Positions 30,600 to 36,990 of a stretch of DNA of 64,000 bases are shown here, piece by piece. Where the stretch lies: assembly GCF_022846255.1 (NCBI RefSeq), contig NZ_AP025682.1; one strand, given 5' to 3'. The position numbers were made by a program, and so were the translations under genes. Position 1 is the first letter of the stretch; each line of letters starts with the position of its first letter. Source of the DNA: Escherichia coli. GTDB lineage: Bacteria > Pseudomonadota > Gammaproteobacteria > Enterobacterales > Enterobacteriaceae. The notes beneath the pieces were generated by a model. The model did not search any database and was not told the DNA's origin. It was given only the letters and a program-made list of their open reading frames with translations.

Positions 30600-31281
30600 T
30601 ATCACCTGGCTTTACCACCATTTGCCGATGCGTTTTAGCTTAACGGTGGAACGCGGCGAGCAGGTGGCGATCCTCGGGCCAAGCGGCGCGGGTAAAAGTA
30701 CCCTGCTGAATTTGATCGCCGGTTTTCTGACGCCAGCCAGCGGTTCGCTGACTATCGACGGCGTTGATCACACCACGACGCCGCCGTCACTCCGTCCGGT
30801 GTCGATGCTGTTTCAGGAGAACAACCTGTTCAGCCACCTGACGGTCGCGCAGAACATCGGGCTGGGGCTAAATCCGGGGTTGAAACTAAATGCGGCGCAG
30901 CAGAAGAAAATGCACGCGATTGCCCACCAGATGGGGATTGATAATTTAATGGCGCGGTTACCTGGCGAGCTTTCCGGCGGTCAGCGACAGCGCGTGGCGT
31001 TGGCGCGTTGTCTGGTACGCGAACAGCCCATTTTATTGCTCGATGAACCGTTTTCCGCGCTCGATCCGGCGCTACGTCAGGAGATGCTGACGCTAGTGAG
31101 CACGAGCTGCCAACAGCAAAAAATGACGCTCTTGATGGTGTCGCACAGTGTGGAAGATGCGGCGCGGATCGCCACGCGCTCGGTGGTGGTCGCCGACGGG
31201 CGTATCGCCTGGCAGGGTAAGACCGATGAGTTGTTGAGCGGTAAGGCGAGTGCTTCGGCGCTGTTGGGAATTAAAGGTTAA
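30583..31281 (+). CDS. thiQ: Thiamine ABC transporter ATPase
   Basis: Track ORF 30562..31281 trimmed to [20 protein letters not shown]... (232 aa); Walker [13 protein letters not shown] signature LSGGQ. Confidence 0.93.
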
Positions 31282-31288
31282 TATGCAC

Positions 31289-31385
<97 letters not shown>

Positions 31386-31394
31386 GGCTATCCC

Positions 31395-32159
31395 CTAAAC
31401 CCCAACCACTTTACGCAAAATATCGATATACACCGGCATCAACGGGTGGCGAATTAACACCACCAGCGCCACCACGCCGATGGCAGAAATCAACGGCGTC
31501 AGCCACAACAAACGACCGCGGGACAAATAATGACTCAAACGGTCAGTCGCTTTACCGCTGCGCCATAACCGCCAGCACAGCCAGCCTCCAACCCACAAAA
31601 ACACCGCTGTTGCCAGCAGCAACCATTTAAACTCACCGCTCTGCATCCCGGCAGGAATATCGATCGCCGCACCCGCCAGAATCCCCGGCAGGAAGTAAAA
31701 CGGTGGCCACAGCAAGCAGCCGATAATATTCGGCGTAATAAATTTTGCCACCGGGAGATCCAGCATTCCCGCCACCATTGGCACCAGCGGACGCGTCGGG
31801 CCGACAAAACGACCGACCAGAATGGTGAACATGCTGTGCTGATGCAGCGCATGTTCGGTTTTATCGAGTAATGCTTTGTTCTTCTTCAGAAATGACCAGC
31901 GATGCAACGGCTTTTTAAAACGCCAGCCCAGCCAGAAGGAGATCCAGTCGCCCAGCAGGCAGCCAATAATCCCCGCCAGCCAGGCGTACCAGAAACTTAA
32001 CTCACCGCTGCCAATCAGTGCTCCCAGCCCCGCCATCAGCACCGTACCGGGTAGAATCAAACCGACCAGCGCCAGCGACTCCAGAAAGGCCACCAATAAC
32101 ACCGCCATCAATGAATACACGGTAGATTGGGTAATAAAGTGTTCCAGCAATGCTTGCAT
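31395..32159 (-). CDS. yabI: DedA-family inner membrane protein YabI
   Basis: Track ORF, 254 aa, MQALLEHFITQSTVYSLMAVLLVAFLESL... Confidence 0.95.
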   Translation of the reverse strand: MQALLEHFITQSTVYSLMAVLLVAFLESLALVGLILPGTVLMAGLGALIGSGELSFWYAWLAGIIGCLLGDWISFWLGWRFKKPLHRWSFLKKNKALLDKTEHALHQHSMFTILVGRFVGPTRPLVPMVAGMLDLPVAKFITPNIIGCLLWPPFYFLPGILAGAAIDIPAGMQSGEFKWLLLATAVFLWVGGWLCWRLWRSGKATDRLSHYLSRGRLLWLTPLISAIGVVALVVLIRHPLMPVYIDILRKVVGV

Positions 32160-32244
32160 AATGTGCCTGTCAAATGGACGAAGCAGGGATTCTGCAAACC
32201 CTATGCTACTCCGTCAAGCCGTCAATTATCTGATTCGTTACCAA

Positions 32245-32292
32245 TTATGACAACTTGACGGCTACATCATTCACTTTTTCTTCACAACCGGC
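32245..32292 (-). pseudogene. Displaced araC 3' remnant (last 15 codons plus stop: AGCEEKVNDVAVKLS*)
   Basis: Minus strand reads GCCGGTTGTGAAGAAAAAGTGAATGATGTAGCCGTCAAGTTGTCATAA, the canonical AraC C-terminus, about 1.8 kb away from the intact araC body. Confidence 0.85.
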
Positions 32293-32313
32293 ACAAAAGA
32301 CACCCTCTGCCTA

Positions 32314-32736
32314 TCATTCGATAGTCTCAAAATATTCCACCTGCAGAGAATCACGGTGCTCAATGATGCAATAACGCTGGAAATTATTTGCATAATCACT
32401 TTTATCATGAAAAAACCATATACAATCGTTTTGTAGACTCGGTCCCATTCTTTTCAAAAAATCTATTAGCTTTGCTTTCTGAAGAAAAATGTTATCTATA
32501 TTTCGCCATGTAACAATCACTCTTGTTTGCATATCATCAACATTATAGTAATAGCTATACTCGGCTACGTTTGATATGTTTGGCAAATTTCGCAAACTCT
32601 CTGGCGTATAAAGGAAAAATGGGGAAAGTTCATGCTGTGTATAGTGATGTTCCTTTGACATCAATGAGATATAAGCATAGAAAAATATAAAGAATAAAAC
32701 TAAAAATGATAATAAAATATAAATATATTTTGACAT
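32314..32736 (-). CDS. Hypothetical membrane-anchored protein, 140 aa (insertion gene B; candidate partner/immunity protein)
   Basis: Track ORF; N-terminal about 21-residue hydrophobic segment YIYILLSFLVLFFIFFYAYISL; ATG 6 nt after the gene A stop (translational coupling); AT-rich codon usage. Confidence 0.7.
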   Translation of the reverse strand: MSKYIYILLSFLVLFFIFFYAYISLMSKEHHYTQHELSPFFLYTPESLRNLPNISNVAEYSYYYNVDDMQTRVIVTWRNIDNIFLQKAKLIDFLKRMGPSLQNDCIWFFHDKSDYANNFQRYCIIEHRDSLQVEYFETIE

Positions 32737-32742
32737 CTCTAC

Positions 32743-33591
32743 TCACGACCTGTGCGGATAATGAGGGTTTAAGAAAAGAAAAAGCGGTCTTTCAAAGGGA
32801 GATTCTGAAAACTTTATAGCTCCCGAACTTGATAATGAACTATACAACTCATGATTTATTCTGTTTTTATCTTTATAATAATTAGTAACAGGTCTATTAT
32901 TATATTGATTATATAACAATGTTGAAAAAGACTCATCTAATGGCTTTATATAATTTAACCATTCTGGAAGCTTCTTTTTTATTAGTTGATTTTTTTTAAA
33001 AGGAGGATGGGTTGTAAATAAGAATGGCGTAAACTCAGTATTTTTAAAATTCCCTGGCGCTCCATATGTATCCCATATTTGTAAGGCTTTTGTGTAAGAT
33101 AAAGGTTTTGCCAATAAAAGTGGATCGGGGCCTGTTCCAAATACACGATAAAAACCAATCAAGTCTGAGACTAAATCTTCTGCACTAAATCCGCTATCAG
33201 TATACCAGTTAAAAATAAATGAGTTTTGCCATGCTTCAAACCTCTTCGCAGTTCCATACATTAACGTTAAGGCAACTCTTGCTTTAAGAGTGGGTGAAAG
33301 ACATGAACGAACCATAACCTTCGTATAAACACCGGTATGAAATGTAAGATCTACTCCTAATATTTTTTTCCGAATTCCCATTTCCTGATGATAATCAACA
33401 GGAAAATACCAATCATGAAATTCATCGTAATATGTTGAAAAATGTTCTTGCTCCAATTTTCTTTTTAATATTCTGGCATCTTGTCCCTGAGCATGCCCCA
33501 AATCGATCCAACCTAACTCTTCGGTATAAACTAATCCATACTTTTTCGTTGTTGCAAATATTCCATCAGTAATATCGTTACGTTTTCTCAT
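32743..33591 (-). CDS. Hypothetical protein, 282 aa (insertion gene A), no family recognised
   Basis: Track ORF 32743..33594 (GTG) trimmed to adjacent ATG; strong Shine-Dalgarno GAGGGGAG 6 nt upstream; no signal peptide or TM segment; Asn/Tyr/Lys/Ser-rich C-terminal third. Confidence 0.7.
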   Translation of the reverse strand: MRKRNDITDGIFATTKKYGLVYTEELGWIDLGHAQGQDARILKRKLEQEHFSTYYDEFHDWYFPVDYHQEMGIRKKILGVDLTFHTGVYTKVMVRSCLSPTLKARVALTLMYGTAKRFEAWQNSFIFNWYTDSGFSAEDLVSDLIGFYRVFGTGPDPLLLAKPLSYTKALQIWDTYGAPGNFKNTEFTPFLFTTHPPFKKNQLIKKKLPEWLNYIKPLDESFSTLLYNQYNNRPVTNYYKDKNRINHELYSSLSSSGAIKFSESPFERPLFLFLNPHYPHRS

Positions 33592-34070
33592 CACAATCTC
33601 CCCTCAAAAAAAACGTATAGCAAATAATATCAATAAGGAAAAATATTATTTTTCAATATTTTTTTGTATACAATTCATTTTATGAATGAATTTACAAAGA
33701 TAGCTGCGCCTGATGCCGCTACACTTTTGCCAGACCATGTTCTCCTCTGAGGGAGTAACTGGCGTTTTTCATAGAATGCCGTACTTTTTTCAACAACTGC
33801 CACATCGAACGGCATTTATGGTGGCGTGAAGTGCCTGCCATAACCGCTCAATGTGGTGTTCCTACGATGAACAAACCGCTTGATATATTCTCCTGATGCA
33901 ACCGGACAATATGTTCATGATGGGTATCCCGATACATAAGCCTTCGTTTTATTTTTACAAAAAGAAATCGTTGTCGATATTTTATCAAGAAAAAAAATAA
34001 TTCAGGTAAAACGATTCAACTAAAAATAACTAAAATTAATCCCCCGTGAAATATATAAATAACGTCAGAT

Positions 34071-34104
34071 GAAGAAAGCAAGGGGGTTCCCCCCCTTCTT
34101 TCTT
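34071..34104. terminator. Near-palindromic G5/C7 hairpin immediately 3' of the truncated araC stop (candidate terminator, possibly bidirectional)
   Basis: GAAGAAAGCAAGGGGGTTCCCCCCCTTCTTTCTT read directly; followed by a T-rich tract on the plus strand. Confidence 0.45.
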
Positions 34105-34105
34105 A

Positions 34106-34951
34106 TTATTCACAACCTGCCCTAAACTCGCTCGGACTCGCCCCGGTGCATTTTTTAAATACTCGCGAGAAATAGAGTTGATCATCAAAACCGACATTGC
34201 GACCGACGGTGGCGATAGGCATCCGGGTGGTGCTCAAAAGCAGCTTCGCCTGACTGATGCGCTGGTCCTCGCGCCAGCTTAATACGCTAATCCCTAACTG
34301 CTGGCGGAACAAATGCGACAGACGCGACGGCGACAGGCAGACATGCTGTGCGACGCTGGCGATATCAAAATTACTGTCTGCCAGGTGATCGCTGATGTAC
34401 TGACAAGCCTCGCGTACCCGATTATCCATCGGTGGATGGAGCGACTCGTTAATCGCTTCCATGCGCCGCAGTAACAATTGCTCAAGCAGATTTATCGCCA
34501 GCAATTCCGAATAGCGCCCTTCCCCTTGTCCGGCATTAATGATTTGCCCAAACAGGTCGCTGAAATGCGGCTGGTGCGCTTCATCCGGGCGAAAGAAACC
34601 GGTATTGGCAAATATCGACGGCCAGTTAAGCCATTCATGCCAGTAGGCGCGCGGACGAAAGTAAACCCACTGGTGATACCATTCGTGAGCCTCCGGATGA
34701 CGACCGTAGTGATGAATCTCTCCAGGCGGGAACAGCAAAATATCACCCGGTCGGCAGACAAATTCTCGTCCCTGATTTTTCACCACCCCCTGGCCGCGTA
34801 TGGTGAGATTGAGAATATAACCTTTCATTCCCAGCGGTCGGTCGATAAAAAAATCGAGATAACCGTTGGCCTCAATCGGCGTTAAACCCGCCACCAGATG
34901 GGCGTTAAACGAGTATCCCGGCAGCAGGGGATCATTTTGCGCTTCAGCCAT
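34106..34951 (-). CDS. araC: Arabinose operon regulator AraC, C-terminally shortened (281 aa; ends ...EFRAGCE*)
   Basis: Track ORF 34106..35002 trimmed to [23 protein letters not shown]...; matches AraC throughout but stops 11 codons early at TAATAA where the AT-rich insertion begins. Confidence 0.92.

Positions 34952-36990
<2,039 letters not shown>

Follow-up and report, generated by a model that had tools for sequence, protein, structure and literature searches.

The window (the whole 64,000-nt stretch of Escherichia coli DNA that was analysed) is of the ABU 83972/CFT073 type and carries, in this order, the plus-strand genes thiB-thiP-thiQ, yabI (31395–32159, minus strand), an island of ∼ 1.8 kb, araC (34106–34951, minus strand), and araBAD and polB on the plus strand. 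Its positions 32100–34150 are 100% identical to sequences of ABU 83972, UPEC 26-1 and numerous further isolates, most of them from humans. RefSeq lists three features in the island, all on the minus strand: two 'hypothetical proteins', referred to here as gene B and gene A, and an 'IS630 family transposase' pseudogene at 33719–33858.

The interval considered here, 33592–34105, comprises exactly the 514 bp that separate the start codon of gene A (ATG at 33591, minus strand) from the stop codon of araC (34106–34108). The initial annotation, made from the sequence alone, had treated it as a single non-coding leader with no ORF of 60 aa or more, and the longest ORFs touching the interval indeed have only 40–53 aa. 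It had also pointed to a GC-rich segment of ∼ 150 bp resembling a decayed coding fragment. Such a segment is present, the GC content being 0.20–0.30 at both ends of the gap and 0.47–0.49 over ∼ 33700–33900, although its length is ∼ 200 bp; the guess as to its nature was right, as it holds the transposase pseudogene annotated by RefSeq. A comparison of these 514 bp with 5,426 complete E. coli genomes, made with sensitive settings, gave a different set of relatives for each piece of the interval. The features of the island and its borders are as follows.

32274–32298, no strand: left direct repeat, the start of the displaced K-12-type araC 3' end (repeat search)
32314–32736, minus strand: gene B, 140 aa, putative immunity partner (translation)
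32743–33591, minus strand: gene A, 282 aa, distant DUF4056/CapCone-like protein, predicted toxin/effector
33592–33699, minus strand: native upstream region of gene A (alignment with Citrobacter, Salmonella, two species of Trabulsiella, Leclercia and Enterobacter)
33700–33896, minus strand: remnant of an IS630-family element, with a terminal inverted repeat (ATAGCTGCGCC...) and approximately the last 60 transposase codons (RefSeq pseudogene; homology to ISEc33)
33800–33857, minus strand: long imperfect stem-loop inside the IS630 remnant (folding of 33780–33929)
33899–33937, minus strand: first 13 codons of a PfkB-family gene, MYRDTHHEHIVRL (tblastn)
33938–34070, minus strand: relic promoter and 5' UTR of an HTH-PfkB kinase gene (alignment with ST131 strain 4224)
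34071–34104, minus strand: hairpin with an A-tract, a GC stem and a U-rich tract (folding; terminator-like on both strands in the terminator scan)
34102–34126, no strand: right direct repeat, the functional araC 3' end (repeat search)
34106–34951, minus strand: araC, 281-aa form ending ...AGCE, with a double TAA (RefSeq annotation of the 100%-identical ABU 83972 record)

The AraC protein of the window has the same length as in Citrobacter and Salmonella, compared with 292 aa in K-12. The island is flanked by direct repeats of 25 nt that are 80% identical (32274–32298 and 34102–34126), and repeats of the same kind flank the cassette in Citrobacter and Salmonella. In the displaced K-12-type araC tail (32245–32297), GAA stands in place of the araC stop codon and is followed by the normal araC–yabI spacer. 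We found no integrase or recombinase gene in the window island, which consists of gene A, gene B and the IS630 stub only.

Searches of the gene A and gene B products against Pfam and PADLOC produced nothing significant, the match of gene A to the Pfam family PF13265 (E = 0.14, 11.9 bits) falling below the 23.6-bit cut-off. Farther homologues of gene A are named DUF4056 or bear PF13265. An alignment of 20 sequences revealed the invariant residues G27, H33, S133, S136 and D139, which agree with the motifs of the CapCone clade of the Lipocone superfamily: a catalytic histidine preceded by a glycine at a distance of six residues, and S/GxxSxx ahead of a conserved aspartate (bioRxiv 10.1101/2025.01.14.632903). 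Members of this superfamily are predicted lipid- or peptidoglycan-targeting conflict effectors (bioRxiv 10.1101/2025.01.14.632903), and one study proposes that a Salmonella DUF4056 ORF, part of a two-gene unit, is a candidate type VI secretion effector (PMC11669294). A structure model (mean pLDDT 70) had no match in the PDB. By eye, a hydrophobic stretch at the N-terminus of the gene B product looks like a transmembrane helix, and a gene for ∼ 140 aa lies behind the gene A homologues in nearly every locus examined; it encodes 137–141 aa in Salmonella, Trabulsiella, Yersinia, Cronobacter and Rahnella and is split or truncated in Citrobacter. We infer that gene A and gene B are a toxin/effector and immunity pair.

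Homologues of gene A with 61–70% identity are encoded in Citrobacter, Salmonella, Trabulsiella, Leclercia and Enterobacter. The order in Citrobacter and in one Salmonella enterica genome is araC, 167 bp, gene A, gene B and yabI; in Trabulsiella, Leclercia, Enterobacter sp. ENT03 and Buttiauxella the cassette is located between araD and polB. Within E. coli, the cassette was found in 486 of the 5,426 genomes, always in the chromosome and once per genome. In CFT073 a single-base deletion splits gene A by a frameshift; APEC O1, ATCC 25922 and others likewise have three annotated ORFs instead of two, and clusters of truncated gene A proteins are common. Such decay fits relaxed selection and a decayed promoter.

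The gaps upstream of the orthologous genes align with the window over just the 100 bp nearest gene A. This native region has a GC content of 20–28% and contains the Shine–Dalgarno sequence of gene A (GAGGGGAG, 33598–33605) and an 8-bp palindrome (AATTCATT-N5-AATGAATT) at 33672–33692. The six relatives have a promoter of the form TTG(T/C)nn-17-TATAA(A/T/C), whose −10 box ends 22–25 nt before the ATG; an A/T-rich stretch is found upstream of it, and a TG precedes the −10 box in five of the six (Salmonella has none). The ATTT of the −35 region and the G-TATA of the −10 region are invariant in all seven aligned sequences. Compared base for base with its relatives, the window reads TTTTCC-17-TGC-TATACG, a vestigial promoter with the −35 hexamer at 33642–33637, the TG at 33622–33621 and the −10 hexamer at 33619–33614 separated by the 17-nt spacer. 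The G of the −35 hexamer and the last two positions of the −10 hexamer have changed, and thus the TTG/TATAAn pattern of the orthologues is lost, whereas the upstream TG is kept. In sigma-70 promoters, the TTG of the −35 hexamer and the last position of the −10 hexamer (usually T) are among the most conserved. Because the substitutions strike these conserved positions, they should weaken the gene A promoter considerably. What is left may be a weak extended −10 promoter, in which the remaining TGn might compensate for the poor −35 and −10 hexamers, and the E. coli cassette would then be weakly transcribed. Transcription would come from this vestigial promoter or from an AT-rich look-alike, TTGTAT-17-AATAAT at 33673–33645, with a possible contribution from transcripts that read through from the orphaned PfkB promoter discussed below.

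A different minus-strand promoter, TTGAAA (33656–33651) with TATTAT (33629–33624), had been suggested by the initial annotation and has to be abandoned: the two hexamers are 21 nt apart, the spacing taken as functional being 15–19 nt, TTGAAA is not conserved in the orthologues, and a consensus scan found no minus-strand promoter in 33592–34105. Over 32000–35400 the consensus scan returned 12 promoter-like sites, no excess over the 8.3 ± 3.0 expected. A scan with a weight matrix based on consensus frequencies gave a top score of 9.2 on the minus strand, a value reached by 88% of composition-matched shuffles. Inspection by eye of the region upstream of gene A in the window found no convincing pair of AraC half-sites and no convincing LexA box. 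Boxes resembling LexA sites were confined to the upstream regions of some distant paralogues.

The next segment towards araC, the IS630 remnant, is 72% identical to ISEc33 at the DNA level over ∼ 200 bp. A tblastn search matched the last ∼ 35 residues of the transposase through to its C-terminal residue 343 (54 bits), a second reading frame matches residues ∼ 293–307, and DNA homology extends back to approximately residue 280, so that the transposase frame is recognizable while being frameshifted and carrying a 13-bp deletion. Mapping of the inverted-repeat arms of ISEc33 showed that one of them fits the end of the remnant in the window (ATAGCTGCGCC at 33700); no second copy of the terminal repeat or of the remnant was found within the window. 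Where a functional IS630 element has both terminal repeats and an intact transposase, this one has a single surviving end and a broken frame and is no longer active as an element; its exact boundary is uncertain by ∼ 3 nt. Judging from these alignments, the IS truly ends at 33699/33700, and the junction near 33896 does not coincide with either of its ends. The segment 33780–33929 folds well on the minus strand (z = −3.1, none of 200 shuffles being as good), forming the stem-loop at 33800–33857. We considered this stem-loop as a feature of the IS and rejected it on inspection of the alignment; it is probably fortuitous because its arms are not complementary in ISEc33.

Beyond the IS630 remnant, the interval resembles another island. 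Positions 33860–34140 were aligned with the araC–PfkB gap of ST131 strain 4224 with a mean column identity of 82%, homology beginning at ∼ 33900; two stretches of 26 bp and 23 bp that are present in ST131 are missing from the window. The ST131 gene, whose 411-aa product is annotated as a 'PfkB family carbohydrate kinase', heads a five-gene island at the same site (PfkB, a DapA-family gene, TctC, TctB and TctA). A direct search of the E. coli genome set found this type of island in 581 genomes other than the cassette carriers. The PfkB protein has an N-terminal DeoR-like helix-turn-helix segment, as read by eye rather than from a domain search. The part retained in the window includes a TGnTAAAAT-like box (CTTGATAAAAT, with the −10 hexamer ending at 33979; CTTGATAAAA occurs both here and in the ST131 PfkB island), the Shine–Dalgarno sequence GAAGG and a stub of 13 codons, MYRDTHHEHIVRL, whose product matches the N-terminus of the ST131 protein (MYRDTRREYIVRL) at 10 of 13 residues in the tblastn alignment. 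The stub then runs out of frame into the IS sequence, giving a 29-aa ORF (33848–33937). This is the only ORF in the interval with a Shine–Dalgarno sequence and it is evidently an accidental PfkB/IS fusion.

On the minus strand, then, the order is the araC end, the hairpin, the PfkB promoter with its 13-codon stub, the IS630 tail and the native upstream region of gene A. In the history suggested by this order, the window island would owe its right end to a PfkB-type island that was truncated at codon 13 and fused to internal sequence of an IS630 element, the outer end of which would have inserted ∼ 105 bp upstream of gene A; the junction between the PfkB stub and IS630 would have arisen by an IS-associated deletion or else by recombination of two IS copies. 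In isolate 30345_1#335, IS1 removed PfkB through TctB, truncating the island at nearly the same position, and left the same araC-proximal 245 bp, an independent parallel which shows that such deletions recur at this site. The whole leader is present in 486 genomes at 98–100% identity, the same number that carry the cassette. That 486 carriers have the same mosaic at this level of identity points to a single origin.

The orphaned PfkB promoter raises the question of whether the cassette has acquired a new source of transcription. If this promoter, relieved of its cognate HTH-PfkB regulator, were chiefly responsible for transcribing gene A and gene B, the mRNA would carry a 5' leader of ∼ 380 nt that includes the 29-aa fusion ORF as well as the stem-loop of the IS630 remnant. 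The relic promoter has the same orientation as gene A, its CTTGATAAAAT box is common to the relic and the intact PfkB island, a scan found no terminator-like minus-strand site between it and gene A, and the native gene A promoter is altered at key positions; in addition, the putative DeoR-like helix-turn-helix in PfkB means that the promoter may have been autoregulated. However, the 26-bp deletion in the window takes out the −35 region used in ST131 (TTGCTT-17), and what is left in the relic is TTACCT with a 19-nt spacer, whose weight-matrix score of 8.4 is no better than chance. The relic is also 18% diverged, with indels, as unconstrained DNA would be. We regard co-option of the hybrid leader as unlikely.

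The hairpin next to the araC stop codon, noticed in the initial annotation, proved genuine. Its arms (34072–34086 and 34090–34104, with a single bulged C at 34079) begin 1 nt past the second in-frame TAA behind the araC stop; on the minus strand it reads AAGAAAGAA-GGGGGGG-AA-CCCCC-UUGCUUUCUU. The minus strand folds with −23.3 kcal/mol (z = −4.2) and the plus strand with −20.1 kcal/mol (z = −4.5), none of 200 shuffles being as good in either case. The terminator scan identified a stable core stem of seven pairs, five of them G-C, with a 4-nt loop. Past the GC core, the minus strand continues with GCUUUCUUCA and the plus strand with CUUCUUUCUU; the U-tract passes the rule of the scan (at least five T in eight), but the run is interrupted and doubles as the lower stem. 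In L082 (CUVET19-1704), the most divergent carrier examined, the hairpin has become, through four substitutions, a perfect palindrome of 16 bp (−27.9 kcal/mol); among them, 34097T>G provides a partner for the C that is bulged in the window. This improvement of the stem is a small hint of selection for the hairpin structure. The homologous sequence in the PfkB-type island forms a degenerate hairpin (−10.7 to −11.1 kcal/mol, z = −0.5).

We consider the hairpin a candidate terminator that would end araC transcripts and so insulate the island from araC, its efficiency being uncertain in view of the interrupted U-tract UUGCUUUCUU. It would also halt antisense transcripts coming out of the island, and it would stand in for the native araC 3' region, now displaced beyond the island beside yabI.

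Two broader readings of the hairpin concern exchange at the araC end. According to the first, the araC 3' end would be a recurrent cassette-exchange site at which two unrelated islands share a 200-bp adapter (the hairpin plus an outward promoter), and the orphaned PfkB promoter and IS630 tail would have been co-opted as the long leader of a Lipocone-type cassette whose own promoter has decayed; we find this combination quite improbable. According to the second, the hairpin would be mainly a DNA recombination site (att- or attC-like) that bounds exchangeable cassettes at the araC 3' end, and not a terminator. It is the first island-specific sequence, right after the 21–25-bp direct repeat of the araC end, it is common to two otherwise unrelated islands, and in the L082 allele it is a perfect palindrome. 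However, neither island has an integrase or recombinase gene within it or next to it, the 581 PfkB-type genomes have a poor hairpin in the homologous sequence, and the presence of the hairpin in both islands is explained by the derivation of one island from the other by deletion. A hairpin also lies directly 3' of the upstream gene in the orthologous loci, those of Citrobacter and Salmonella included, and its sequence is unrelated in each; unrelated hairpins at the same spot fit terminators and not a conserved recombination site. The second reading is very unlikely. The candidate terminator is thus the reading that we retain.

The initial annotation had also raised the possibility that the interval encodes a small RNA or a peptide and had proposed an RNA-structure and covariance search. 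No known RNA family is present in the interval: an Rfam 15 scan of 31000–36000 returned nothing within 33592–34105 at E ≤ 1. The sole matches in 31000–36000 were sub-threshold naRNA4/REP-like ones at 31285–31401. The interval as a whole folds better than shuffles (z = −3.8); most pieces outside the hairpin fold like them, the native segment (z = −0.6) and the PfkB relic (z = +1.8) being no better than shuffles. A covariation test of the hairpin and leader is uninformative within E. coli, where the 486 carriers are 98–100% identical and L082 is the sole informative allele. A literature search covering araC/yabI, CFT073 locus tags (guessed) and Nissle dRNA-seq found no expression or start-site data for this locus. 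We see no indication of a dedicated small RNA or riboswitch in the interval. That the interval is a dedicated regulatory leader, with a small RNA, regulatory peptide or riboswitch-like structure that controls the module, is extremely improbable: the fold of the whole interval, the stem-loop at 33800–33857 and the 29-aa ORF with its Shine–Dalgarno sequence could be cited in its favour, but no Rfam family was found at E ≤ 1, the structured parts are the terminator-like hairpin and IS-derived sequence, the ORF results from a chance fusion out of frame, clear homology to unrelated elements covers ∼ 400 of the 514 bp, and the orthologous cassettes, with 139–167 bp upstream and a −10 box ∼ 25 nt from the ATG, leave no space for a structured leader.

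The idea of one ∼ 510-bp leader holding the regulatory logic of the module has to be given up: just ∼ 100 bp are native to gene A and ∼ 400 bp are unrelated debris. Positions 33592–34105 are very probably a historical mosaic of four parts and not a purpose-built leader. The functional inferences, terminator activity and a weak native promoter, have a somewhat less than even chance of being right, and the best explanation as a whole, with the mosaic anatomy and the functional inferences blended, is probably correct.

The interval is the scar of known kinds of element, one of them already annotated, and is in this sense ordinary. Its weight for biology at large is little, the suspicious-looking leader resolving into debris of an IS-associated deletion, an ordinary candidate terminator and a promoter that appears decayed. 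The analysis corrects the assumption that all 514 bp regulate the cassette; the segment relevant for reporter constructs would be 33592–33699. According to the same analysis, the UPEC/B2 island is an apparent hybrid in which two older islands of the araC end are combined. Gene A and gene B stand out as an uncharacterized CapCone/DUF4056-like toxin-immunity candidate, a cassette kept in the ara neighbourhood across Enterobacteriaceae and decaying in E. coli.

Each part of the interval can be set beside a known system. The PfkB/DapA-like/TctCBA island of ST131 and 580 other E. coli genomes shares with the window the insertion point and the 281-aa AraC end, and its hairpin, intergenic region, Shine–Dalgarno sequence and first 13 codons are homologous to those of the window. 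However, the window lacks everything past codon 13 and has the IS630 tail and the gene A/gene B cassette instead; at the yabI-side junction, the K-12-type araC tail is kept in the window and absent in ST131. The remnant belongs with ISEc33 and the IS630 family, as the transposase C-terminus (RHHKCRSMWQLLKKVRH...AKV and the stop codon) is recognizable and the terminal repeat ATAGCTGCGCC is kept, and NCBI's PGAP already annotates it as an IS630 pseudogene. Compared with a complete IS630 element, only about the last 17% is left, with a frameshift and the 13-bp internal deletion, and the inner boundary is an illegitimate junction to the PfkB gene stub.

The native upstream region resembles the sigma-70 promoters of the gene A orthologues, several of which are of the extended −10 type, in its position relative to the ATG and in the A/T-rich sequence upstream. 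It retains the ATTT and TGnTATA cores but has TTTTCC in place of TTG(T/C)nn and TATACG in place of TATAA(A/T/C), the last −10 base being G in the window and T, A or C in the relatives. Finally, the hairpin is similar to bidirectional intrinsic (Rho-independent) terminators in its GGGGG/CCCCC core and 4-nt loop, in its A-rich 5' arm and U-rich 3' arm and in its place right behind a stop codon, whereas its U-tract is broken by G and C (UUGCUUUCUU) and the genes that flank it are co-directional, not convergent.

Members of the group of long (~282-aa) gene A orthologues are nearly always found in the ara neighbourhood. Trabulsiella, Leclercia, Enterobacter sp. ENT03 and Buttiauxella carry the gene in the araD-polB gap (comparison loci L010-L014 and L016), and E. 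coli, Citrobacter and one Salmonella carry it in the araC-yabI gap (L006-L009 and the window). Gene A is 64-70% identical among these genera and 51-53% identical to its Buttiauxella counterpart, whereas the flanking AraC and YabI of the Citrobacter and Salmonella loci are 92-95% and 86-89% identical, respectively, to those of E. coli. The gene A-gene B cassette thus looks old, fast-evolving and patchily retained. In CFT073 (L081), gene A is split because a run of T, at a site corresponding to window position 33363, has lost a single base, and three ORFs instead of two are annotated in APEC O1, ATCC 25922 and other strains. Part of the lineage is thus losing an intact cassette to decay.

AraC of K-12 has 292 aa and carries 11 C-terminal residues beyond the 281-aa form. 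The DNA corresponding to these residues is non-coding 3' sequence in the loci studied from Salmonella and Citrobacter (L006, L009, gene B-yabI region), and K-12 reads GAA at the position of their TAA stop. In the window, the K-12-type tail, GAA included, is displaced to the yabI side of the island:

32245-32297: displaced K-12-type araC tail, belonging to a direct repeat (25 nt) of the araC end
34102-34126: other copy of this repeat

In the alternative island of ST131 (L003), the first gene encodes the following protein:

L003 2806-4038: 'PfkB family carbohydrate kinase', 411 aa, with an N-terminal segment that by eye resembles a DeoR-type helix-turn-helix (...SVSDLANYFSVTKETIRTDL)

This protein may be a fusion of regulator and kinase, governing the five-gene PfkB/DapA-like/TctCBA operon in which it is encoded. 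In L091 (NZ_OZ038806.1, 2748-3745), an IS1 insertion and deletion, independent of the event in the window, has removed PfkB through TctB and left the same araC-proximal 245 bp; IS-mediated truncations therefore recur at the araC-end site. Between thiQ and yabI, the Rfam matches to naRNA4, a REP-derived nucleoid-associated RNA, at 31285-31401 score 35-37 bits, below the gathering score of 59.5 bits, and are probably REP elements.

The native region upstream of gene A contains a symmetrical element, only partially conserved in gene A orthologues:

33672-33692: perfect 8-bp palindrome, AATTCATT-N5-AATGAATT, just inside the native region and adjoining the IS630 end

Inspection by eye revealed no LexA-like box in the window. 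Several distant (35-46% identical) gene A paralogues (L053, L056, L060, L077) have CTG-N10-CAG-like sequences ~30-55 nt upstream, overlapping the promoter-like region (for example, ACTGTATAAAAACCAG in Tatumella). Their resemblance to LexA boxes hints at SOS induction of part of the gene A family, as in many bacteriocins.
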